From the UHGV virus genome UHGV-0338605: a DNA stretch of 29,450 nt; one strand, written 5' to 3'. Origin of the DNA: a virus. Of this stretch, positions 146 through 28,941 are shown piece by piece (position 1 is the stretch's first letter; the number at the start of each line of letters is the position of its first letter). The translations under genes were made by a program, and so were the position numbers. A model generated the notes under the pieces. That model was not told where the DNA came from, did no database searches, and was given only the letters and a program-made list of their open reading frames with translations.

Positions 146-406
146 ATGATGGATGTAAAAGAGAAGGTTTTGCAGGTGATACGTTCCCGTGCGGCCCTGC
201 AAGAGAAAGCTCTCGGCGGGGAATATCCATTCACGATAGCAACCTGGAATCTGCGGTTGGCAATGGAGAAGGAATTTCCTGATGAAGAATGGCGCTCGGC
301 AGATTTGCGCAAAATTCTTATGGAGCTGGCTAAAGACGGAACAGTATCTAAAGATACCCATGCCAGCCGGATTGGTCAGGCGGTATGGAGACTGGAGGTG
401 AGGTAA
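146..406 (+). CDS. hypothetical small phage protein (about 86 aa)
   Basis: AGGAGG at 136-141 precedes ATG 146/149; stop TAA overlaps the next start (TAATG 404-408); no family recognised. Confidence 0.5.
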   Translation: MMDVKEKVLQVIRSRAALQEKALGGEYPFTIATWNLRLAMEKEFPDEEWRSADLRKILMELAKDGTVSKDTHASRIGQAVWRLEVR

Positions 407-744
407 TGGCTAAATCCGCAGCAGAACGCAAAGCCGCGCAGCGGGCCCGCCAGGCTGAATCTGGTAACCGCAAGCTTGAATTGCAACTCGATGAGCAGGA
501 GCATGAGATGCTGGCGCGGAACTGCGCCGCCCGGCGCCCTGGTCGTGCGCCGTATGAGATGAGCGAGTACATCGCGTTGCTTATCCGCCAGGATGATGCG
601 CGAGTTCGTGGCCGTATCAAGTCAATCAGCACCAACCGCTGCGGCAAGTGCGGCGATGCGTTGCCGGTTAAGTCGTGTCCGTGCGATGGTGATTCGGCAT
701 GTTGGGTGACGCGTGGCTGGCATGAGACTAAATTATCAGTGTGA
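406..744 (+). CDS. putative ribbon-helix-helix (Arc/MetJ/CopG-like) DNA-binding protein with Cys-rich C-terminus (112 aa)
   Basis: GGAGGTGAGG before ATG 406. N-terminal RKLELQLDEQEHEMLARN...YEMSEYIALLIRQ fits a strand-helix-helix pattern; C-terminal CGKCG...CPCDGDSAC cysteine cluster. Stop TGA lies inside the palindrome at 741-752. Confidence 0.5.
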   Translation: MAKSAAERKAAQRARQAESGNRKLELQLDEQEHEMLARNCAARRPGRAPYEMSEYIALLIRQDDARVRGRIKSISTNRCGKCGDALPVKSCPCDGDSACWVTRGWHETKLSV

Positions 745-752
745 CATGTCAC
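741..752. repeat. 12-bp perfect palindrome GTGACATGTCAC, copy 1
   Basis: Read directly; identical 12-mer recurs at 2983-2994. Confidence 0.8.
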
Positions 753-811
753 GATATCGACAATAAATTGCAATGGCCGCCGACTATGGCGGCTTTGTTT
801 TGCGTGTTACT

Positions 812-828
812 ATTACCAAAATGGTAAT
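812..828. promoter_or_regulatory. 17-bp palindrome ATTACC-AAAAT-GGTAAT, candidate operator, copy 1 of 6
   Basis: Read directly; 20 bp upstream of the terminase small subunit ATG at 848. Confidence 0.6.
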
Positions 829-847
829 TATTACTTTGGTGGTAACA

Positions 848-1477
848 ATGCCCGCAGAACCTAAAGCACCAAAACGCAAATCAACGCAGTATAAGCCACT
901 GACAGCGATGCAGGAGGCTTACGCGCAGGAATACACCAAATGCCCTGAGAATCAGACTCAGGCAGCGATTAACGCAGGATTCTCACCTAATACGGCAGCG
1001 GTAAAAGCCAGCGTCATGATGCGTGATGAGCGTATCCAGAAACGGATCGCCGAACTGATGGAAGAGCGCAACAAGCGTCTGCGTGTCAGTGCTGATTACG
1101 TGCTGCTCCGCCTGGTGGAAATCGACCAGATGGATGTGCTGGACATCCTGAATGAAGATGGCTCAATGAAGCCGATCAGCAGCTGGCCAAAGGTATGGCG
1201 TACTTCTCTCAGTGCTCTTGATATTGCAACGATAAAAACCACGCAGGCATCACTGCAAAAAGATAATGGTGAAGCGGATCTGTCAGTTGAGGATGTAGAG
1301 CATATTCTCAAAAAAATAAAATGGCCGGACAAGGTGAAGAACCTTGAGCTTATCGGTAAGCACGTCGACGTCAATGCGTTCAAAGAGCGCCTGGAGGTTT
1401 CCGGTACCGTCACGATTGCCGACCGCATGGCGAAGGCCCGTCGTCGCGTGAAAGAACAGGCTGGTGGTGAAGAATGA
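848..1477 (+). CDS. terminase small subunit
   Basis: ATG 848 chosen within ORF 773-1477. Sits immediately upstream of, and overlaps by 4 bp, the large terminase gene; size and basic N-terminus fit small-terminase proteins. Confidence 0.75.
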   Translation: MPAEPKAPKRKSTQYKPLTAMQEAYAQEYTKCPENQTQAAINAGFSPNTAAVKASVMMRDERIQKRIAELMEERNKRLRVSADYVLLRLVEIDQMDVLDILNEDGSMKPISSWPKVWRTSLSALDIATIKTTQASLQKDNGEADLSVEDVEHILKKIKWPDKVKNLELIGKHVDVNAFKERLEVSGTVTIADRMAKARRRVKEQAGGEE

Positions 1478-2955
1478 CAGCTGCAGCCATGTCGCCGGAA
1501 GATCAGCTCGTCGAGGATATCGCATCGTTCACGTATGACCCGCTGGGCTATTCGCTGTATGCGTTTCCGTGGGGCGAAGAGGGAACAGAGCTGGCGCATG
1601 CCACCGGTCCGCGAAAATGGCAGGCTGATGCATTCCGCGAGATACGGGATCACCTTCAGAATCCTGCTACCCGTCACCAGCCACTGATGCTGGCCCGCGC
1701 ATCCGGTCACGGTATCGGAAAATCCGCTTTCATTTCGATGCTGATCAACTGGGGCATGTCCACCTGCGAGGACTGCAAGGTGGTGGTGACCGCCAACACA
1801 GACAACCAGCTGCGCACCAAAACATGGCCTGAAATCATCAAATGGTCGAACCTGGCTATCACGAAAGAATGGTTCACCTGCACCGCCACGGCGATGTACA
1901 GCAACGATCCCGGTCACGACAAACGCTGGCGCGCTGACGCAATCCCATGGTCTGAGCACAACACAGAGGCGTTCGCCGGTCTGCACAACGAGCGTAAGCG
2001 CATCATCGTCGTATTCGACGAGGCGTCCAACATCGCCGATCTGGTGTGGGAGGTGGCCGAGGGTGCGCTGACGGACGAAGACACCGAAATCATCTGGGTG
2101 GCGTTCGGTAACCCGACGCGTAACACCGGGCGTTTCCGTGAATGCTTCCGAAAATACAAACACCGCTGGAAGTGCGCGCAGATAGACAGCCGTACTGTCG
2201 AAGGAACAAACAAGCAGCAGTTGCAGAAATGGGTGGACGACTACGGCGAGGATAGCGACTTTGTGAAGGTCCGTGTGCGCGGGATCTTCCCTGATGCGTC
2301 TGAAAACCAGTTTATTCCATCCGGCCTGACGCAACCAGCTGTTGGCAGGGTTATCACTCCGGCACAGGTCCAGCACGCTGCTGTAGTTCTTGGCGTCGAC
2401 CCGTCTCACCAGGGTAAAGACCCCGCAGTTATCTACCTGAGGCAGGGGCTGCACTGCAAAAAACTCGGGGAGTGGCAGCGTACCACTGACGATGTGCTGT
2501 TTGCGAAAGTGATCGCCGACTTTGAGGATCAGTACCAGGCTGATGCTGTGTTTATCGATTACGGCTATGGCACAGGTCTTAAATCTGTTGGCGATAACTG
2601 GGGGCGTAACTGGACGCTGATAATGTTCGGCAGCGGTACGGCAGATCCTGAAATGGGCAATAAGCGCGGCGAGATGTACAAATCAGCCCGTGATGCGCTG
2701 AAGCTTGGTGCGCAACTTGATAGCCAGGATTTAGCCGACGAGCTGAGCGCTCCTGAATACAAGGTCAGGCTCAAGGACAGCCGGAAGATTTTGCAGGACA
2801 AGGAAGAGGTGAAAGAATTGCTTGGCCGGTCACCTAACAACGCCGACGCCTATGTGCTGACTTATGCTGCTCCGGTTACTAAAAAACAGTTCAATTATGG
2901 GCAGCAGCAAAGCCAGCAGGGTAAGGCTCTCACAGAGTACGATCCCTATGCATGA
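1474..2955 (+). CDS. terminase large subunit
   Basis: 493-aa ORF with a Walker-A-like ASGHGIGKS and an acidic VVFDEASNI motif followed by a nuclease-like C-terminal half; ATG overlaps the upstream stop (ATGA). Confidence 0.9.
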   Translation: MTAAAMSPEDQLVEDIASFTYDPLGYSLYAFPWGEEGTELAHATGPRKWQADAFREIRDHLQNPATRHQPLMLARASGHGIGKSAFISMLINWGMSTCEDCKVVVTANTDNQLRTKTWPEIIKWSNLAITKEWFTCTATAMYSNDPGHDKRWRADAIPWSEHNTEAFAGLHNERKRIIVVFDEASNIADLVWEVAEGALTDEDTEIIWVAFGNPTRNTGRFRECFRKYKHRWKCAQIDSRTVEGTNKQQLQKWVDDYGEDSDFVKVRVRGIFPDASENQFIPSGLTQPAVGRVITPAQVQHAAVVLGVDPSHQGKDPAVIYLRQGLHCKKLGEWQRTTDDVLFAKVIADFEDQYQADAVFIDYGYGTGLKSVGDNWGRNWTLIMFGSGTADPEMGNKRGEMYKSARDALKLGAQLDSQDLADELSAPEYKVRLKDSRKILQDKEEVKELLGRSPNNADAYVLTYAAPVTKKQFNYGQQQSQQGKALTEYDPYA

Positions 2956-2978
2956 AAAAGCCCGCGCATCGGCGGGCT
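2955..2978 (-). terminator. rho-independent terminator for the minus-strand tRNA/Gp49 unit
   Basis: Stem GCCCGC(2960-2965)/GCGGGC(2972-2977) with a 6-nt loop; on the minus strand it is followed by TTTTT (plus AAAAA 2955-2959). Lies just 3' of the minus-strand CDS ending at 2999. Confidence 0.6.
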
Positions 2979-2982
2979 GATT

Positions 2983-2994
2983 GTGACATGTCAC
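2983..2994. repeat. 12-bp perfect palindrome GTGACATGTCAC, copy 2 (14-bp TGTGACATGTCACA at 2982-2995)
   Basis: Read directly, between the converging 3' ends of the terminase large gene and the minus-strand gene. Confidence 0.8.
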
Positions 2995-2998
2995 ATCA

Positions 2999-3406
2999 TT
3001 ATTTTTCGCTCATTATCTGCTTCAGAAGATAACCTTCCAGCATCCAGATTTTATTTACCGCATTTTCGCGGGAAATCTTTCGCCCGATCTCTGGGTCGAA
3101 GTTCTCAGGGCTGGCGCATGCACTCTCGCCGGTGACAGTGAATCCATTTCGCAGCACTAGAACGCAAAACGTAAGTACTGCAGCCTGCTCAGGAATGTTC
3201 AACTCCTCAACCTTTTCATCATCTGACTTTGTATCAGTCAAATATTGATGGCGACCTGCTATACCATCAGCAGCCGTGAAGTAATGCTCACTTACTATAA
3301 CGTCGGCAATCCGTTGTGGCGTAATGCGCGGCGCGTTTAAGCCTTTAGCCTGAATTTCCTGCTCGATTGCCATGCAGGATGGTGCTGGAGATGCGGTTGA
3401 TACCAT
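2999..3406 (-). CDS. small phage protein, possibly Gp49/Gp66-like family (about 135 aa)
   Basis: ORF on the minus strand; ATG at 3406 preceded by AGGTGA (the track's GTG at 3415 is less likely). The C-terminal ASPENFDPEIGRKISRENAVNKIW resembles, from memory, Phage_gp49_66-type proteins; unverified. Confidence 0.55.
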   Translation of the reverse strand: MVSTASPAPSCMAIEQEIQAKGLNAPRITPQRIADVIVSEHYFTAADGIAGRHQYLTDTKSDDEKVEELNIPEQAAVLTFCVLVLRNGFTVTGESACASPENFDPEIGRKISRENAVNKIWMLEGYLLKQIMSEK

Positions 3407-3613
3407 GATTTTCACCTTAAAAAAATGCCCACCGAAGTGGGAGAACTGGAAGCAAGGGTGCCTTCCATGGCTTTACGGGTTTACAGCGCAACGTCATCGC
3501 AATGGCGTTCTGCTGTAAAAGTGACGGTGGTCAGCATCAAGGGAAACTGCCACCGCCAATAGCTACACAGCATCGTTCTTATGGGCGCTTCATCACGGTC
3601 CTAAGGCGTGATC

Positions 3614-3690
3614 TGGTGCGGCATGCAGGATTCGAACCTGCGACCAACCGCTTAGAAGGCGGTTGCTCTATCCAACTGAGCTAATGCCAC
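3614..3690 (-). tRNA. tRNA-Arg (anticodon UCU), argU-like
   Basis: Minus-strand 77-nt sequence GTGGCATTAGCTCAGTTGGATAGAGCAACCGCCTTCTAAGCGGTTGGTCGCAGGTTCGAATCCTGCATGCCGCACCA folds as a cloverleaf: 7-bp acceptor stem with one G-U pair, GTTCGAATC T-loop, anticodon loop CTTCTAA, encoded CCA. Confidence 0.88.
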
Positions 3691-4143: not shown

Positions 4144-4160
4144 ATTACCTAAAAGGTAAT
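4144..4160. promoter_or_regulatory. 17-bp palindrome ATTACC-TAAAA-GGTAAT, candidate operator, copy 2 of 6
   Basis: Read directly; about 90 bp upstream of the ATG at 4250 in an AT-rich promoter-like stretch. Confidence 0.6.
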
Positions 4161-4470: not shown

Positions 4471-6141
4471 ATGGCGGAAACCGAAAAAGAGCGTCTGCTG
4501 AAGCAGCTCGCACAGCTGAAGAATGAGCGCACATCGTTCGAGTCGCACTGGCGTGACCTGAGCGACTTCATCAATCCGCGCGGCTCTCGCTTTCTGACGT
4601 CTGATGTAAACCGTGATGATCGTCGAAACACCAAGATTGTTGATCCTACTGGCTCAATGGCTCAGCGCATTTTGTCCAGCGGCATGATGTCAGGCATCAC
4701 CAGCCCGGCACGTCCATGGTTCAAACTGGCAACGCCAGACCCTGACATGATGGATTATGGTCCGGTTAAAGTCTGGCTGGAAGTCGTGCAGCGCCGCATG
4801 AACGAAGTGTTCAACAAGTCAAACCTGTATCAGTCATTGCCTGTCATGTACGCCAGCCTTGGCACTTTCGGCACCGCCGCAATGGCTGTGCTCGAAGATG
4901 ACCAGGACGTGATCCGCACAATGCCTTTCCCGATTGGCAGCTACTACCTGGCTAACAGCCCGCGCGGCAGCGTCGACACATCCTTCCGCCAGTTCTCCAT
5001 GACTGTTCGTCAGCTTGTGCAGGAATTCGGTCTGGATAACGTCAGCTCATCGGTGCAGGGGATGTGGCAAAACGGCACGTATGAAACGTGGATCGAGGTT
5101 AACCACTGCATTACTCCAAACGTTAACCGTGATACCGGGAAGATGGACAGCAAGAACAAGCCGTTCCGCTCTGTGTACTTCGAGAGTGGCGGCGATTCCG
5201 ACAAGCTGCTGCGTGAGTCCGGCTTCGATGAATTCCCGATCCTGGCGCCGCGCTGGGAAGTTAACGGCGAAGACGTTTACGCATCTTCCTGCCCTGGCAT
5301 GCTGGCACTCGGTCAGGTGAAAGCCCTTCAGGTTGAGCAGAAGCGTAAAGCTCAGCTGATCGATAAGGCTACTAACCCGCCGATGGTCGCACCTACCTCG
5401 CTAAAAACACAGCGTGTTTCCCTGCTGCCTGGTGATGTGACGTACCTCGACGTGTTGAACGGTCAGGACGGTTTCAAACCTGCATACCTGGTAAACCCGA
5501 ATACTGCAGATCTGCTGGCTGATATTCAGGATACCCGCCAGACCATCAACAGCGCCTACTTCGTCGACCTCTTCATGATGCTGCAAAACATCAACACCCG
5601 CTCTATGCCGGTGGAAGCAGTGATCGAGATGAAGGAAGAGAAACTTCTGATGCTTGGCCCGGTGCTGGAGCGCCTGAACGACGAAGCACTTAATCCGCTT
5701 ATTGACCGCGTTTTCTCCATCATGGCGCGCAAGAACATGCTTCCTCCACCGCCGGACGTTATGCAGGGTATGCCGCTGCGTATCGAATACATCTCCGTTA
5801 TGGCGCAGGCTCAGAAATCTATCGGACTCACCAGCCTTTCGCAGACCGTTGGCTTCATTGGCCAACTCGCACAGCTCAAACCTGAAGCGCTCGACAAGCT
5901 CGACGTTGATCAGGCTATCGACGCGTTCTCCGAAATGTCCGGCGTATCGCCAACCGTCATCATTCCGCAGGAGCAGGTTCAGGGCATTCGTGAAGAGCGC
6001 GCCAAACAGGCACAAGCCGCACAGGCAATGGCAATGGGGCAGGCCGTAGCGCAGGGAGCCAAGACTCTCAGCGAGACGCAAACCACTGACCCGAGCGCAT
6101 TAACCGCTATCGCTAATGCAGCAGGAGCACCGCAGCAATGA
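4471..6141 (+). CDS. portal (head-to-tail connector) protein
   Basis: 556-aa ORF with RBS, first large gene of the head module after terminase; size and position typical of podovirus portals; Ala/Gln-rich C-terminal tail. Confidence 0.75.
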   Translation: MAETEKERLLKQLAQLKNERTSFESHWRDLSDFINPRGSRFLTSDVNRDDRRNTKIVDPTGSMAQRILSSGMMSGITSPARPWFKLATPDPDMMDYGPVKVWLEVVQRRMNEVFNKSNLYQSLPVMYASLGTFGTAAMAVLEDDQDVIRTMPFPIGSYYLANSPRGSVDTSFRQFSMTVRQLVQEFGLDNVSSSVQGMWQNGTYETWIEVNHCITPNVNRDTGKMDSKNKPFRSVYFESGGDSDKLLRESGFDEFPILAPRWEVNGEDVYASSCPGMLALGQVKALQVEQKRKAQLIDKATNPPMVAPTSLKTQRVSLLPGDVTYLDVLNGQDGFKPAYLVNPNTADLLADIQDTRQTINSAYFVDLFMMLQNINTRSMPVEAVIEMKEEKLLMLGPVLERLNDEALNPLIDRVFSIMARKNMLPPPPDVMQGMPLRIEYISVMAQAQKSIGLTSLSQTVGFIGQLAQLKPEALDKLDVDQAIDAFSEMSGVSPTVIIPQEQVQGIREERAKQAQAAQAMAMGQAVAQGAKTLSETQTTDPSALTAIANAAGAPQQ

Positions 6142-19954: not shown

Positions 19955-20806
19955 ATGAAAAAAATAAATTTGTTTTTTGGCATAGTGCTTTCAATAGTCT
20001 CTGTAAATCCTACAGCTGCCAGTTCATTGCAATGCAATAAGGATAACTTTGATGCATGCAAAACGTGTGAACAATTATCAAAGGCTATCGACTTAAAAGA
20101 ACCTAATCGTGGCGATTACTATAGAGGGGCTTTATGGAATGGGCTTTACGCCTCTTATGTAATTAATTGCCCTGTGGTTGCTGAGAAGTTACTGAGCCAT
20201 GGTGCTATACCATCATATGGCGGATATATGGGGTCTATGGGGGCGGTTCTGACAGGAAAATGGCCTCATAACAATGAATCAATAAATCTTTCATGGGCAG
20301 ATTTGCTTATAAAACATGGATTTGATGTTAATAGGCATACGGGGAATTATAAATCAGCTACTGAAGTATGGGCTATAGATAAAAAACAGATTGAATATAA
20401 GTCAGTTTTTGACAAGTTAATTCAATCCAGCGAAGTAAAACCACTCGATCCTTCAAGAAATTTAGAATGGTGTGCGTCTGAAGGGTATCGCTCAGTTGTC
20501 GTTTATTCCCTTAACTCATGTATAGAAAATGCTATAAAACGTTTGGATGATGGTGTTTCTTCAGCGTCTGATATTTCATCAGCAGCCGTAAATTCCTGTA
20601 CTAGCGATGTAGAAAATTTCAATAAGCATTTGGCATGCAAAGCAGCTGTTAAAGAAAACTCTGATAAAGAGAGAAGCGACGTTTACCAGTTATTAACCAG
20701 TGATAGTCAAATGAATAAAAATGTTATTGATATGCTGAAGGAAAGAAATATTGAAACGGTTCTTGAATTTAGAGCTGAAAATCGATCAGCGAAAACTGCA
20801 CAGTGA
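19955..20806 (+). CDS. secreted or periplasmic protein of unknown function (283 aa), AT-rich accessory gene
   Basis: N-terminal signal peptide MKKINLFFGIVLSIVSVNPTAAS; strongly AT-rich compared with the flanking structural genes; ATG one nucleotide after the gp16-like stop; weak ankyrin-like LLxxGA/DVN patterns (LLSHGA, LLIKHGFDVN). Confidence 0.6.
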   Translation: MKKINLFFGIVLSIVSVNPTAASSLQCNKDNFDACKTCEQLSKAIDLKEPNRGDYYRGALWNGLYASYVINCPVVAEKLLSHGAIPSYGGYMGSMGAVLTGKWPHNNESINLSWADLLIKHGFDVNRHTGNYKSATEVWAIDKKQIEYKSVFDKLIQSSEVKPLDPSRNLEWCASEGYRSVVVYSLNSCIENAIKRLDDGVSSASDISSAAVNSCTSDVENFNKHLACKAAVKENSDKERSDVYQLLTSDSQMNKNVIDMLKERNIETVLEFRAENRSAKTAQ

Positions 20807-20812
20807 TCAAAC

Positions 20813-20837
20813 AGGCCGCTTTCGCGGCCTTGTTTTT
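20813..20837 (+). terminator. rho-independent terminator
   Basis: Stem AGGCCGC/GCGGCCT (20813-20830) with TTTC loop followed by TGTTTTT; ends the plus-strand late operon. Confidence 0.7.
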
Positions 20838-20997
20838 AACGAATGCCACCGCCGCCCGGGCGGGAATCCGCAGAACGCCCACCGCAGCGGGAGCCGTCAG
20901 CGGCAGTATCGCTGTCGTGCTGACAACGACCGGCAAAGGCCTGAGTTGAAGCTACCAGAGACAACAAAACGAACAGTGCAGCAAATGCTTTTTTCAT
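20836..20997 (-). CDS. small secreted peptide candidate (53 aa)
   Basis: Minus-strand ATG at 20997 gives MKKAFAALFVLLSLVASTQAFA followed by a short Cys-containing mature part. Coding status uncertain. Confidence 0.35.
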   Translation of the reverse strand: MKKAFAALFVLLSLVASTQAFAGRCQHDSDTAADGSRCGGRSADSRPGGGGIR

Positions 20998-21773: not shown

Positions 21774-21790
21774 TTTACCATTAGGGTAAA
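21774..21790. promoter_or_regulatory. 17-bp palindrome TTTACC-ATTAG-GGTAAA, candidate operator, copy 3 of 6
   Basis: Read directly; 40 bp upstream of the minus-strand ATG at 21734. Confidence 0.6.
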
Positions 21791-22926: not shown

Positions 22927-22943
22927 TTTACCGAAAAGGTAAT
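22927..22943. promoter_or_regulatory. 17-bp palindrome TTTACC-GAAAA-GGTAAT, candidate operator, copy 4 of 6
   Basis: Read directly, in the divergent intergenic region 22659-23055. Confidence 0.6.
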
Positions 22944-23019: not shown

Positions 23020-23036
23020 ATTACCTTTAAGGTAAT
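23020..23036. promoter_or_regulatory. 17-bp palindrome ATTACC-TTTAA-GGTAAT, candidate operator, copy 5 of 6
   Basis: Read directly; 20 bp upstream of the ATG at 23056. Confidence 0.6.
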
Positions 23037-24141: not shown

Positions 24142-24158
24142 ATTACCTGTGAGGTAAT
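24142..24158. promoter_or_regulatory. 17-bp palindrome ATTACC-TGTGA-GGTAAT, candidate operator, copy 6 of 6
   Basis: Read directly; between the divergent starts of the 86-aa gene (24066, minus) and the tail spike gene (24262, plus). Confidence 0.6.
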
Positions 24159-24261: not shown

Positions 24262-26973
24262 ATGACGGTCTCAACCGAAGTTGACCACAATGACTACACG
24301 GGTAACGGGGTCACGACATCATTCCCCTATACCTTCCGAATTTTTCATAAGTCTGATCTGGTGGTGCAGGTTGTTGACCTGAGCGAAAACATCACTGAAT
24401 TAACACTGGACACTGACTACACGGTGACAGGTGCTGGCGGATATACTGGCGGGAATGTTGTTTTATCGTCGCCTCTTGCCAATGGTTATCAGATTTCGAT
24501 ATCCAGAGAGTTACCGGTTACCCAGGAGACTGATCTCAGAAATCAGGGTAAGTTTTTCGCAGAAGTGCATGAGGATGCTTTTGATAAGTTGACCATGCTG
24601 ATACAGCAGGCAATTAGCTGGCTGCGCCTTTCTTTACGTAAGCCGTCTTTTATTGCAAATTATTATGATGCCCTGGGTAACTACATACGAAATCTTCGTG
24701 ACCCGTCACGACCACAGGATGCAGCTACAAAAAATTACGTTGACGGGGTTGCTGAAGGTAACATTTCTTATGCAGATTCTCTATTTAAAAGAACCTTAAG
24801 AGTTCCTGAGGATTATGTTGACCAGATACCATCAAATGCTGATAGATCAAATAAAATACTTGCTTTTGATTCTGGAGGTAAACCGATTGCTGTTTTACCT
24901 GAATCTGGTTCTGCTTCAGATGTTTTAATTGAGCTGGCAAATAACGGTGATAAAAAAATTGGTAGCTCATATGGTGGCACAGTTTATAGCGACTACCAAC
25001 AATCAATTTTTGTCAAAAAAGGAGATTTTTATTCCGGTTTAAGCATATCGGGAAAAGATGATGCCTACCTTTTTTCTGATGGGCTATGGTATGTATGGAC
25101 TGGCGCATTACCGCACACGATCTTGTCGGGTGAAACTCCTGATGTAGAAACAACTAAATGGGCTTGTGTAGGCCTGCTTAATGGGCATGAAATTTGTTCT
25201 GCTCTTAACTATAGCGATTCATGGGGCATCCATGATGATTCACCATTACTTCGCAAAGCCATCATTAGTTTAATAAGAACTGGATATGCAAGATTTTGCA
25301 TTAACGCTGGCGTTACTATTAACCTTTTTACTGATTGCGAAATTCCGTTCTATCTGGATGGGAGGGCTGTGTCTTTCCGTTTTCATGGAGAAACAGCAAT
25401 TGGTTCTTTAGGAAGAGTGTCAGAACTAGTAGTAGCTCTAGGTATTAGAGGTCTTGTATTCGAGGCTATTCAAGTAGAGATTGACCATTTCACTATGCGT
25501 CAGTGGGTTGGTAATGCTGGGCAGTCTATTGTCAGTTATACATCTGATACAGTTACGCTATCTTTTGACCCATGGCCTGACGGACGCACCCCAGTGATAT
25601 GGCCTTGGGGAACTACTGCTGGTGATGGCACTGTTTACACAAGCTTTTTAGAATTTACAACTGACAGTGGTGGTTATTACGCATCTGGCGTAACTCGCAA
25701 CTTAGATGGAACCGTAACACTAACCAATGTCCATCCTATTGGGCCAACTAATACAATCGCTTCCGCAACGATTGTTAACTTTTTCCAGAGTCATGCTAAT
25801 AACTATCCAGAAGGAAGTTTCGCAGATACGGCAGCAGTAATCACCCTGGGGGTATCAGAAAACCCATTTATTCATAACTTATGGGTGCTTGCTGTCTATC
25901 GAGGCTTTGCTCACGGTCTTGGCTCTGGAGCAGGTCCGGGAGTATTGATGGGAAATATCGGCGTATGGTCTGATATTGTCGTAGACAACGCTTTATACTT
26001 TATAGCTAATACTGATGTGAATCCATCATCTGGGCAAGGCATCAACAATGGGATGTTCAATAACATTCAGTTATCAAACGTCCGTCGTGGAATAAGAGCA
26101 CGTAGAGCCTACAATCTTGCATTCACAAACCTTCAGCATATTGCTAGCGGTAATGTTTCATTTGATGCTGTTACTATACTGGCAAATGAAATAGAAGGTG
26201 TTACTTTAAATGGATCTCAGTTTGGTTGGACATCTATCGACTGGGTTATAGATACATGGGTTCCTAAACTACTCAAGTGTACCCGATTACGTCGCTCCTC
26301 TATTACTGGATGCGTGTTCGGTCGACATGATGTAACCATCACAAGAGGTGCCGTAATTGACGTTAAGGACGGCACAATACTAGGTTTAACACTAACTGGT
26401 AATTCTATGGTTACAATCGACGAAAACTCAGATTCAAGTAACTATGGATGGATTGAGTGTAATGAGCTTAAATCATCAGTTATTTCTGATAACTCCCCTA
26501 GTTCAGGTAGTGAGCTTGGTGGAAGCATTAATCTCTCGCTGAGAACTGCTTCTAATGACTTAACAAAATTTGATAACACATATTTTGGTCAACCAGTCAG
26601 AACAAACGCAGAAGCTGGTGTGTTTGATAATGAACTAGCATCCGGTGGAAATGTTTTTGACAGCACAACTGAATACAGAGACGCAGGTAAAATTTTAATC
26701 TTTGTTGATGTAAACAATGCTGCTGTATGGCCTGATAATTCAAGGAATATCATACCATTCGGCGGAGGATTAACAGGAGGTAAAACACTTGGATTGCCTA
26801 CCCCAGCAGTACTCCTGTCATTGAAAAGAAGAAGTGTTCTGGTTGATTTGTCATCTGTGGTTTTTGGTAGCCAGACAATTGGAGTGTATAACGGGGCAAC
26901 TTTGGTATCAACAATATCAACTCCTGGTGTTTATGAGTTTCTCCTCGTAGGGGCAAAATACATAAAATTATAA
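24262..26973 (+). CDS. tail spike / tail fibre receptor-binding protein (903 aa)
   Basis: GGAG RBS; N-terminal MTVSTEVDHNDYTGNGVTTSFPYTFRIF...DLVV is the conserved virion-attachment type of N-terminus seen on many tail fibres and spikes; the remainder is AT-rich and Ser/Thr/Gly/Asn-rich. Confidence 0.75.
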   Translation: MTVSTEVDHNDYTGNGVTTSFPYTFRIFHKSDLVVQVVDLSENITELTLDTDYTVTGAGGYTGGNVVLSSPLANGYQISISRELPVTQETDLRNQGKFFAEVHEDAFDKLTMLIQQAISWLRLSLRKPSFIANYYDALGNYIRNLRDPSRPQDAATKNYVDGVAEGNISYADSLFKRTLRVPEDYVDQIPSNADRSNKILAFDSGGKPIAVLPESGSASDVLIELANNGDKKIGSSYGGTVYSDYQQSIFVKKGDFYSGLSISGKDDAYLFSDGLWYVWTGALPHTILSGETPDVETTKWACVGLLNGHEICSALNYSDSWGIHDDSPLLRKAIISLIRTGYARFCINAGVTINLFTDCEIPFYLDGRAVSFRFHGETAIGSLGRVSELVVALGIRGLVFEAIQVEIDHFTMRQWVGNAGQSIVSYTSDTVTLSFDPWPDGRTPVIWPWGTTAGDGTVYTSFLEFTTDSGGYYASGVTRNLDGTVTLTNVHPIGPTNTIASATIVNFFQSHANNYPEGSFADTAAVITLGVSENPFIHNLWVLAVYRGFAHGLGSGAGPGVLMGNIGVWSDIVVDNALYFIANTDVNPSSGQGINNGMFNNIQLSNVRRGIRARRAYNLAFTNLQHIASGNVSFDAVTILANEIEGVTLNGSQFGWTSIDWVIDTWVPKLLKCTRLRRSSITGCVFGRHDVTITRGAVIDVKDGTILGLTLTGNSMVTIDENSDSSNYGWIECNELKSSVISDNSPSSGSELGGSINLSLRTASNDLTKFDNTYFGQPVRTNAEAGVFDNELASGGNVFDSTTEYRDAGKILIFVDVNNAAVWPDNSRNIIPFGGGLTGGKTLGLPTPAVLLSLKRRSVLVDLSSVVFGSQTIGVYNGATLVSTISTPGVYEFLLVGAKYIKL

Positions 26974-28295: not shown

Positions 28296-28774
28296 TCAGA
28301 GCATTCATGAAAGCGTACTGGAAACAGTTGCTTATCGTGGCGATGCTTGCTGCTCTGGTGATCGTCGGCGTTGTTGCCTGGAATGTTCATGGCAGCCGAC
28401 AGTATGACGCCGGGTATGCGCAGGCAAAGACAGACCGTAAAACCGAAGATGATAAAGCTCGTCAGCACGACGAACAGGAGAAAGCAATCAATGAACGTAA
28501 AGCGCAGCAGAGGATCGACCAGGCGCGCAATGATGCTCTTGATGCTGCCGCTCGCGCTGGCAGGTTGCAGCAACAGCTCGTTGCCATCCGTGAGCAGCTC
28601 AGGCAGTATAACGCCATTGTCGGCGCTGGGCCGTCAGCCGCAGACACCGGTGTTTTGCTTGCCGACTTGCTCAGCAAATCTCTCGAGCGAAACCGACAAC
28701 TGGCAGAGTACGCTGATCGGGCAGCCGAAGCAGGAAGAGTCTGTGAAAAGCAGTACGATTCGCTGACCAGGTGA
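28292..28774 (+). CDS. Rz-like i-spanin (160 aa)
   Basis: N-terminal transmembrane segment LLIVAMLAALVIVGVVAW followed by a charged coiled-coil-like region; ATG overlaps the endolysin stop (ATGA). Confidence 0.7.
   Translation: MIRAFMKAYWKQLLIVAMLAALVIVGVVAWNVHGSRQYDAGYAQAKTDRKTEDDKARQHDEQEKAINERKAQQRIDQARNDALDAAARAGRLQQQLVAIREQLRQYNAIVGAGPSAADTGVLLADLLSKSLERNRQLAEYADRAAEAGRVCEKQYDSLTR
28491..28766 (+). CDS. Rz1-like o-spanin lipoprotein embedded in Rz in the +1 frame (91 aa)
   Basis: AGGAG before ATG 28491; signal peptide with lipobox LALAGC; Pro/Ser-rich mature part; entirely within the Rz gene, as in lambda Rz/Rz1. Confidence 0.6.
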   Translation: MNVKRSRGSTRRAMMLLMLPLALAGCSNSSLPSVSSSGSITPLSALGRQPQTPVFCLPTCSANLSSETDNWQSTLIGQPKQEESVKSSTIR

Positions 28775-28941
28775 CATGGCATTTTTCATGGTACTGATTT
28801 CCGGCGACGGTATATAAAACGGTATTGGAAATTTTGTTTCTTTAAAAGTTGTTGTCAGTCAATTACTTATGTTGTCCGTAAATAATTGAGTGGGAATGAT
28901 TTGACCCTGCACTATGAATGAACAAAACCCTCTGTTACTAC

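Follow-up and report, generated by a model that had tools for sequence, protein, structure and literature searches.

The virus genome UHGV-0338605 was analyzed as a single stretch of 29,450 bp (hereafter, the window). It is that of an epsilon15-like (Uetakevirus) phage or prophage and encodes terS (Terminase_2), terL, a cargo gene and a tRNA-Arg, portal and virion genes, a tailspike, and a lysis cassette. Our subject is a 12-bp palindrome, GTGACATGTCAC, and the small adjacent gene that encodes a protein of 112 amino acids (aa). The palindrome occurs exactly twice, at 741–752 (S1) and 2983–2994 (S2); an exact search of the window found no further copy, in agreement with the preliminary description of this DNA. 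The comparative evidence presented below shows that the two palindromes are copies of a conserved cis-element, most likely the cognate sites of the 112-aa protein. The features at the locus are as follows.

406..744, plus strand: gene of the 112-aa protein (epsilon15 gp49/N15 gp46 family, PHROG 536)
741..752, no strand: S1, GTGACATGTCAC; register kept in Uetakevirus relatives and in N15-like, P2-like, and other homologue loci
2983..2994, no strand: S2, GTGACATGTCAC, within a 14-bp palindrome, TGTGACATGTCACA, at 2982–2995
775..802, plus strand: intrinsic terminator, GGCCGCCGACTATGGCGGC followed by a T-run (stem 775–794), ending the early-right operon
848..2955, plus strand: terS (848–1477, Terminase_2) and terL (1474–2955), context between S1 and S2 and not parts of the element
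2959..2978, minus strand: hairpin/intrinsic terminator of the cargo gene (stem 2978–2959, tail TTTTCATGCA; RNA fold computed)
2999..3415, minus strand: cargo gene of the Phage_gp49_66 family, its 3′ end abutting S2

Positions 2–4 of S1 are the TGA stop codon (742–744) of the 112-aa open reading frame (ORF), and S2 lies 28 nt past the terL stop codon (2955) and 4 nt beyond the hairpin at 2959–2978; both placements are as previously described. By chance, a mean of 0.02 copies is expected, and none of 100 dinucleotide-preserving shuffles reached two. S2 is situated between convergent genes, with no ORF starting or stopping within it. Because the T-run of the neighboring hairpin is on the minus strand, that hairpin is assigned as the terminator of the cargo gene, on whose transcript the order is stop codon, S2, terminator. 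The terminator at 775–802 starts 22 nt after S1 and has a counterpart annotated in epsilon15 at 39646–39672.

A relaxed search of the window for GTGAC-NN-GTCAC retrieved one extra site, GTGACCCGTCAC at 24698, inside the tailspike ORF. It has no conserved counterpart in epsilon15 or phiV10 and is probably a chance occurrence. A degenerate copy is also found at the end of the lysis cassette.

28771..28782, no strand: degenerate copy GTGACATGGCAT (10/12 bases matching) over the TGA stop codon of the Rz-like gene

The epsilon15 sequence at this place (about 26618) is identical to that of the window, and SPC32H (26696) has GTGACATGTCAT, with 11 of 12 bases. The degenerate copy shares its register with S1 and with S3, a third site found in relatives, and is possibly a weak or decayed fourth site.

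Conservation in close relatives

Conservation of the palindromes was examined in 80 IMG/VR loci with terL 81–100% identical. Both are kept in most of these relatives, which places their occurrence far beyond chance. The earlier proposal had held that it would be contradicted by close relatives retaining the genes and lacking the palindromes; the relatives keep them, so no such contradiction arises. Substitutions are almost confined to the central two bases (AT, then AG, CT, AC, and GT), with GTGAC and GTCAC fixed. At some loci, the palindrome is retained despite an additional gene that separates S1 from the 112-aa gene or S2 from terL. The right flank of S1 is mosaic, consisting of the terminator, of a TTGACT...TATACT promoter with a LexA box, or of small ORFs. 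S2 is the exact junction between the conserved terL–terminator segment, whose hairpin immediately left of S2 is kept in most relatives, and a hypervariable minus-strand cargo region. Relatives diverge 4–5 nt past this site, and many unrelated minus-strand cargo genes have their stop codon 4–5 nt from the palindrome.

The third site, S3, is present in epsilon15 (19517), phiV10 (19493), and SPC32H (19634); in Uetakeviruses it is 17 kb from the terminase-flanking sites. It shares bases with the stop codon of the final gene in the virion operon; a terminator follows directly, and the 3′ end of the antirepressor gene ant is adjacent. The window lacks S3 at the corresponding place.

20801..20840, plus strand: place of the missing S3, cagTGAtcaaaca followed by terminator GGCCGCTTTCGCGGCC and a T-run

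In one close relative (locus L152, 3160–3300), this terminator is immediately preceded by gagTGTGACATGTCACA in place of the cagTGAtcaaaca of the window, and a 283-aa ORF in the window (compared over 19955–20840) replaces the small membrane protein of relatives whose stop codon lies in S3. By sequence comparison, the loss of S3 is a module replacement with its breakpoint at the palindrome/terminator.

Individual relatives also carry damaged sites: GTGACAGTCAC, with a 1-bp deletion, at S1 of the Escherichia coli SEC470 prophage (L001, 3337–3347); GTGACAGGTCAC at S2 in PAT1 (L002, 5525); and GTGACATGTTAC at S1 in phiV10 (record ends). Single sites are thus dispensable or decaying in some prophages. 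A separate observation concerns the right flank of S1, where many relatives (L018, L022, L023, L026, L059–L083, and others) have a TTGACT-17-TATACT promoter and a LexA box (CTGT-N8-ACAG) within 6 nt of the palindrome. This module is of the SOS-controlled antirepressor type, and the same layout occurs in a Yersinia P2-like phage (L087, 9945–10070); in SPC32H, the characterized ant gene abuts S3 instead.

Association of the motif with the PHROG 536 gene

The 112-aa protein, of 12 kDa, matches PHROG 536, annotated as "transcriptional regulator," over residues 1–111 (E = 5e-52), a full-length profile match. Its gene, which closes the early-right operon, is homologous to epsilon15 gp49 and phiV10 gp55. 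Homologues were retrieved with tblastn from 154 phage records of very different types, among them epsilon15, phiV10, ZF40, N15, phiKO2, and lambda-like, P2-like, Yersinia, and Vibrio phages. Representative members and their sites are given below.

Pectobacterium ZF40 gp22 (myovirus, 68% identity): TTGTGACATGTCACA 2 nt after the stop codon; copies at 5125 and 7622 bracket cI-cro-cII
E. coli Chlobot (lambda-like, 74% identity): site 6 nt after the stop codon
N15 gp46 (linear plasmid prophage, 39% identity): CGTGACTGGTCACG overlapping the stop codon; second copy inside repA
Yersinia vB_YenM_31.17 gp13 (P2-like, 42% identity): TGTGACGCGTCACA overlapping the stop codon, upstream of a LexA-box promoter
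Vibrio K303 (siphovirus-like, 38% identity): three sites within 36 kb, of which one is 30 bp upstream of terS

The copies around cI-cro-cII are also kept in ZF40-like contigs. When a further 80 loci were sampled via the family alignment, GTGAC-N2-GTCAC was located at the stop codon of the gene in 58, including 30/30 N15-like loci, and no other spacing was found there. The register at the stop is mostly shared (TGA at positions 2–4), and at least one site lies within 10 kb in 79 of the 80. Hosts seen are Enterobacterales, Vibrio, and Aeromonas. The genome of lambda (48.5 kb), which lacks the family gene, has zero copies of the 12-mer. The motif accompanies the stop codon of this gene even where the terminases are unrelated, which assigns the palindrome to the 112-aa gene and not to the terminase.

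Spacing was counted in 1.49 Mb from the terL set and 1.33 Mb from the family set, 2.8 Mb in total. The N2 arrangement accounts for 150 and 147 copies, respectively (297 altogether), and each of N0, N1, and N3–N8 for 0–4, with about 1.3–1.4 expected. Of the other half-site arrangements, the everted one gave 1 and 3 copies (background) and the direct repeat 14 and 0 in the terL and family sets, respectively. The core of 203 distinct sites is preceded by a pyrimidine in 93% and followed by a purine in 93%, a feature for which the sites were unselected. These symmetric flanks extend the element to a 14-bp dyad, Y-GTGAC-AT-GTCAC-R, which can be written more generally as Y-GTGAC-(A/T-rich NN)-GTCAC-R, as the duplex form YGTGACATGTCACR, or as the search form YGTGACNNGTCACR. 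Of 16 sites in annotated genomes, 12 lie between genes or overlap a stop codon.

As far as computation goes, co-occurrence of gene and motif and the strict 2-bp spacing support the earlier suggestion that the adjacent protein is a candidate binder. Gene and site form a portable cassette: the site is usually located over the stop codon of the gene itself, and the phage genome has one to three more. The protein–site pair is genuine and conserved and appears to be undescribed; the published literature yielded no paper containing the 12-mer and none linking a ribbon-helix-helix (RHH) protein with Uetakevirus. The preliminary description also noted that the palindromes bracket the terminase genes. 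The positions are correct, but the bracketing is incidental, as in other lineages the extra sites flank cI-cro-cII, fall within repA, or precede terS; we regard it as a by-product of layout without packaging function.

Two side observations concern particular homologue clades. In one (L255, L261, L268, L273, L280–L284, L287, and L289), a second short dyad, AACCTG-WTGCAGCAGG, is found 10–25 nt past the stop site; having no T-run, it is no obvious terminator and is possibly another protein site. N15-like prophages (L213, L218, and L231, about 230–660; N15 L086, 3238) have conserved extra sites, one in the 5′ part of repA, and a longer dyad, ccccGTGACCCGTCACgggg, about 9.7 kb upstream of gp46. 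From their positions, the repA-internal site and ccccGTGACCCGTCACgggg roughly bracket repA.

Predicted structure of the 112-aa protein

The family is small: clustered at 50%, a set of 1.84 billion proteins contains 207 representatives of it. The AlphaFold2 model, for which 43 sequences were used, consists of a basic N-terminal helix, an extended segment, two helices, a Cys-rich region, and a terminal helix. Predicted local distance difference test (pLDDT) values are about 90 for residues 30–70. The model matches RHH proteins, with a β-strand-helix-helix core at about residues 20–75. Conserved cysteines are C79, C82, C91, and C99, and the Cys-rich tail is probably zinc binding.

An RHH fold of this kind would permit one dimer to read the two 5-bp half-sites across a non-contacted 2-bp center. 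The strict dyad, fixed spacing, free center, and symmetric flanks would indirectly fit a β-ribbon dimer in the major groove.

Position of the sites and possible modes of action

In the epsilon15-like layout, the sites are located where transcription units end, between a stop codon and an intrinsic terminator. This holds for S1, S2, and S3 of epsilon15, phiV10, and SPC32H, each of which has its terminator downstream on the transcript. The units concerned are the early-right operon (S1), the cargo gene converging on terL (S2), the virion operon of relatives (S3), and Rz (decayed copy). The preliminary description had offered boundary signals of the terminase transcription unit as an alternative to a regulator-binding site; as a description of site location, this is partly right.

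With low confidence, we propose that the 112-aa protein, made last from the early operon, would then occupy the boundary sites. Bound there, it might modulate transcription across operon boundaries, acting as a roadblock or insulator or changing terminator read-through. Placement of the site inside the protein's own stop codon, ahead of a terminator, would favor cis-loading of the nascent protein, although this is speculation.

Alternatively, the protein could bridge its sites as MatP does. The host site matS is GTGAC[AG]N[TC]GTCAC, with the consensus GTGACATTGTCAC (PMC3603311; PMC8669397), and the phage site consists of the same half-sites with one central base fewer (a spacer of 2 bp versus 3). 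A phage-borne analogue of MatP/matS can accordingly be envisaged, in which an RHH protein cis-loaded at its own stop codon marks or bridges a few phage positions, serving as a boundary or termination factor or interfering with MatP or with MukBEF/SMC-type complexes. We consider this doubtful, if conceivable. Site pairs are about 2.2–2.5 kb apart around the terminase genes of the window and around cI-cro-cII of ZF40-like phages.

Counter-evidence and alternative explanations

Several observations weigh against the 112-aa protein as the binder of these sites. An unbiased IMG/VR scan for TGTGACATGTCACA returned at least 120 loci and provides no clean association statistic. Among the matches listed (at least 120 viral loci), the family gene lies within the short retrieved stretch of 32, and a further 29 are similar to family-carrying phages, so that these tests tie just 61 of 120 listed loci to such phages and leave the other 59 unassigned. 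About 15 of those 59 fall into two recurrent contexts in lineages without a detectable family gene. In a representative genome of each, tblastn and hidden Markov model (HMM) searches found no family gene, yet Klebsiella phage ST16-OXA48phi5.3 has a conserved GTGACATGTCAC site, which overlaps the cro stop codon and the ATG of the next ORF, and phage BUCT708 has two sites. Such lineages make possible another binder, a host factor, a trans-acting protein of a co-resident prophage, or a protein-independent role. The protein itself gave no RHH match in Pfam/NCBIfam (even at E ≤ 10) or in the PDB, by sequence or by profile, and its model is moderate overall (mean pLDDT 71), with a poorly predicted Cys-rich region. 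The earlier designation of the protein as RHH-like therefore stands for the predicted core fold and not for a sequence-profile match to a curated family. Searches found no characterized family member and no published binding experiment. Operators at 3′ ends are atypical of RHH regulators, which leaves action at terminators without direct support, and in other lineages sites are found inside genes (ZF40 gp08 and gp12; N15 repA) or just before ribosome-binding sites.

Three further observations came from these scans. The genome-collection scan returned at least 120 matches, mostly chance occurrences in unrelated taxa, and likewise provides no clean association statistic; among the matches listed, the gene adjoins the site in 3 of 120, all from Enterobacterales. 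Unrelated bacteria (L335, 200–247, Candidatus Jettenia; L418, 2988–3017; L410, 5678–5879) have tandem copies of GTGAC-NN-GTCAC with an 18-bp spacing, which are probably other, unrelated protein-binding arrays that share the half-site. The record of "Stenotrophomonas phage BUCT708" (L298, OM816834.1) is about 94% identical, over 251 bp spanning the palindrome, to IMG/VR contigs; the stretches retrieved from these have mostly about 50% G+C. Stenotrophomonas maltophilia has roughly 66% G+C; judged by the matching contigs' G+C and not that of the record itself, the recorded host may be wrong.

A different account holds that the palindrome is a recombination linker, a short conserved junction for module exchange, and that the 112-aa gene is merely a linker-bounded cassette. 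S1 and S2 lie exactly where conserved sequence turns mosaic, the loss of S3 from the window has its breakpoint at the palindrome/terminator, and these phages encode RecT/Exo-type recombinases. Exchange by homology, however, needs no perfect dyad, strict 2-bp spacing, free center, or symmetric Y/R flanks; sites are also conserved within coding regions of ZF40-like and N15-like phages, and a junction right after the last conserved functional element is expected anyway. We judge the linker account unlikely, although it is compatible with a protein site, which can double as micro-homology. Recognition by a host factor (MatP or similar), with the phage protein unrelated or competing, is quite improbable. 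In its favor are the matS half-sites, the conserved sites in phages without a detectable family gene, and the hosts seen (Enterobacterales, Vibrio, and Aeromonas), all of which fall in the MatP-bearing clade. A host factor of this kind is difficult to reconcile with the strict 2-bp spacing: the 13-bp matS form, GTGAC-RNY-GTCAC, is absent from the window, and N3 spacing, with 3 and 2 copies in 1.49 and 1.33 Mb (five in 2.8 Mb), is not enriched. It would also leave unexplained the overlap, in six unrelated phage types, with the stop codon of a single phage gene, and Bobay et al. reported that true matS is absent from prophages (PMC3603311).

An RNA element, whether stop/start coupling (UGA-C-AUG) or a small 3′-end hairpin affecting translation, stability, or termination, would account for the many copies that supply an upstream TGA, for the lineages in which the central ATG after GAGG/AAGG starts the next gene, and for the Uetakevirus copies just 5′ of terminator hairpins. 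We nonetheless rate it very improbable: the center varies (AT, AG, CT, TG, GC, and AC), destroying the ATG while the half-sites stay invariant; S2 is convergent-intergenic, with no ORF starting or stopping there; folding gives only a 4-bp stem and no consistent structure; and dyad symmetry with Y/R flanks is a signature of duplex DNA. Terminase recognition by pac-associated elements flanking the packaging genes, a further alternative of the preliminary description, hardly remains credible and is rejected. The SPP1 pac site, of a Terminase_2 type system, spans the region upstream of terS. S1 is likewise about 100 bp upstream of a Terminase_2 type terS, several deposited Uetakevirus genomes start near S1, and one Vibrio K303 site immediately precedes terS. 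Against this, motif and gene occur in cos phages or with unrelated terminases (Chlobot, Yersinia P2-like, N15, and ZF40), far from the terminase genes; Uetakeviruses have three sites per genome, the third where the virion operon ends, at a distance of 17 kb; and the depositing authors chose terS as the start of their records.

Other candidate functions were tried and rejected. The palindrome is not an intrinsic terminator, as its stem is ≤4 bp and the true terminators are separate, adjacent hairpins. It is not a Rep operator, which differs in sequence and is located elsewhere. A σ70 promoter with GTGACA as the −35 element (GTGACA-17-TAAATT, 741–769) would start inside the terminator; relatives do not keep its −10 element, and no equivalent exists at S2 or S3. 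An antisense promoter with the palindrome in its spacer (TCGATA-17-GATAAT, minus strand, 760–732) fits repressor-operator geometry in the window, but relatives conserve neither its −10 nor its −35 element. CRP/FNR-type sites would be spaced wrongly for this motif, and the SlmA site, GTGAGTACTCAC, would mismatch it at the invariant positions 5 and 8.

Neighboring elements in the window

A second dyad, TTACC-N5-GGTAA, has six exact copies in the window (813–827, 4145–4159, 21775–21789, 22928–22942, 23021–23035, and 24143–24157), with 0.4 expected by chance, and one-mismatch copies at 831 and 21876. It is the annotated "repressor" operator of epsilon15. The Rep-type operators at 813, 4145, and 24143 lie upstream of terS, the portal/virion operon, and the tailspike, respectively, and others cluster around 21.7–23.0 kb. 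From this arrangement, the late genes appear to constitute three separately repressed units. Between terL and the portal operon, the variable cargo region contains a tRNA-Arg gene (anticodon TCT; 3614–3690, minus strand), and a tRNA-Arg is found at the same place in SPC32H and E. coli SEC470.

Implications and comparison with known systems

If the 112-aa protein indeed recognizes these palindromes, a DNA target would be defined for PHROG 536, now annotated merely as "transcriptional regulator" and found in many temperate phages that infect Enterobacterales, Vibrio, and Aeromonas, the models epsilon15, SPC32H, phiV10, N15, and ZF40 among them. An operator in the regulator's own stop codon, together with 3′-end sites, is an unusual layout that points to control of unit boundaries or DNA bridging and not to classic promoter repression. 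Were the phage analogue of MatP/matS real, it would represent an undescribed kind of phage genome organization or anti-host function. The motif also marks mosaic junctions and can aid the annotation of module boundaries in these phages.

The site itself evokes MatP/matS, the Ter macrodomain organizer of E. coli and its relatives, and the one-base difference raises the question of cross-talk, or deliberate non-cross-talk, with host MatP. Here, the protein is phage encoded and the sites are on phage DNA. Comparison of the family alignment with E. coli MatP gave no detectable homology (hhalign probability of 0.1%). Work by Dupaigne in 2012 reportedly describes MatP as a four-helix bundle (the main DNA-binding motif), an RHH domain, and a coiled coil; the 112-aa protein has no room for the N-terminal four-helix bundle or the C-terminal coiled coil and has a Cys-rich tail instead. 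With no enrichment of the matS form, no homology to MatP, and a different architecture, we treat the matS likeness as an unexplained resemblance and not as membership.

RHH antitoxins and the CopG family (MazE, TacA, ParD, FitA, and CopG) autoregulate from promoter operators, whereas the 112-aa gene has no adjacent toxin partner and its product no profile match to RHH antitoxin/CopG-type families. The pac sites of Terminase_2-type phages (SPP1/SF6) share with S1 a location near terS, but the motif is independent of terminase type and position. A parallel is found in P22 Arc and Mnt, which repress the antirepressor operon and are small phage-encoded RHH proteins with short dyad-symmetric operators, as predicted for the 112-aa protein. 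The genomic context is reminiscent as well: in some relatives and the Yersinia P2-like phage, the site is upstream of a LexA-box antirepressor-type promoter, and in SPC32H, S3 abuts the 3′ end of ant. Arc and Mnt nevertheless have no sequence similarity to the 112-aa protein, no Cys-rich domain, and unrelated operators that overlap promoters, whereas the present sites mostly overlap stop codons or precede terminators. The Rep operators of epsilon15/SPC32H-type phages likewise form a dispersed palindromic set in the same genome. They differ in sequence and in binder (a helix-turn-helix repressor), and the two sets occupy opposite ends of transcription units: Rep operators at the 5′ ends of the late units (813, 4145, and 24143), and the GTGAC palindromes at 3′ ends.

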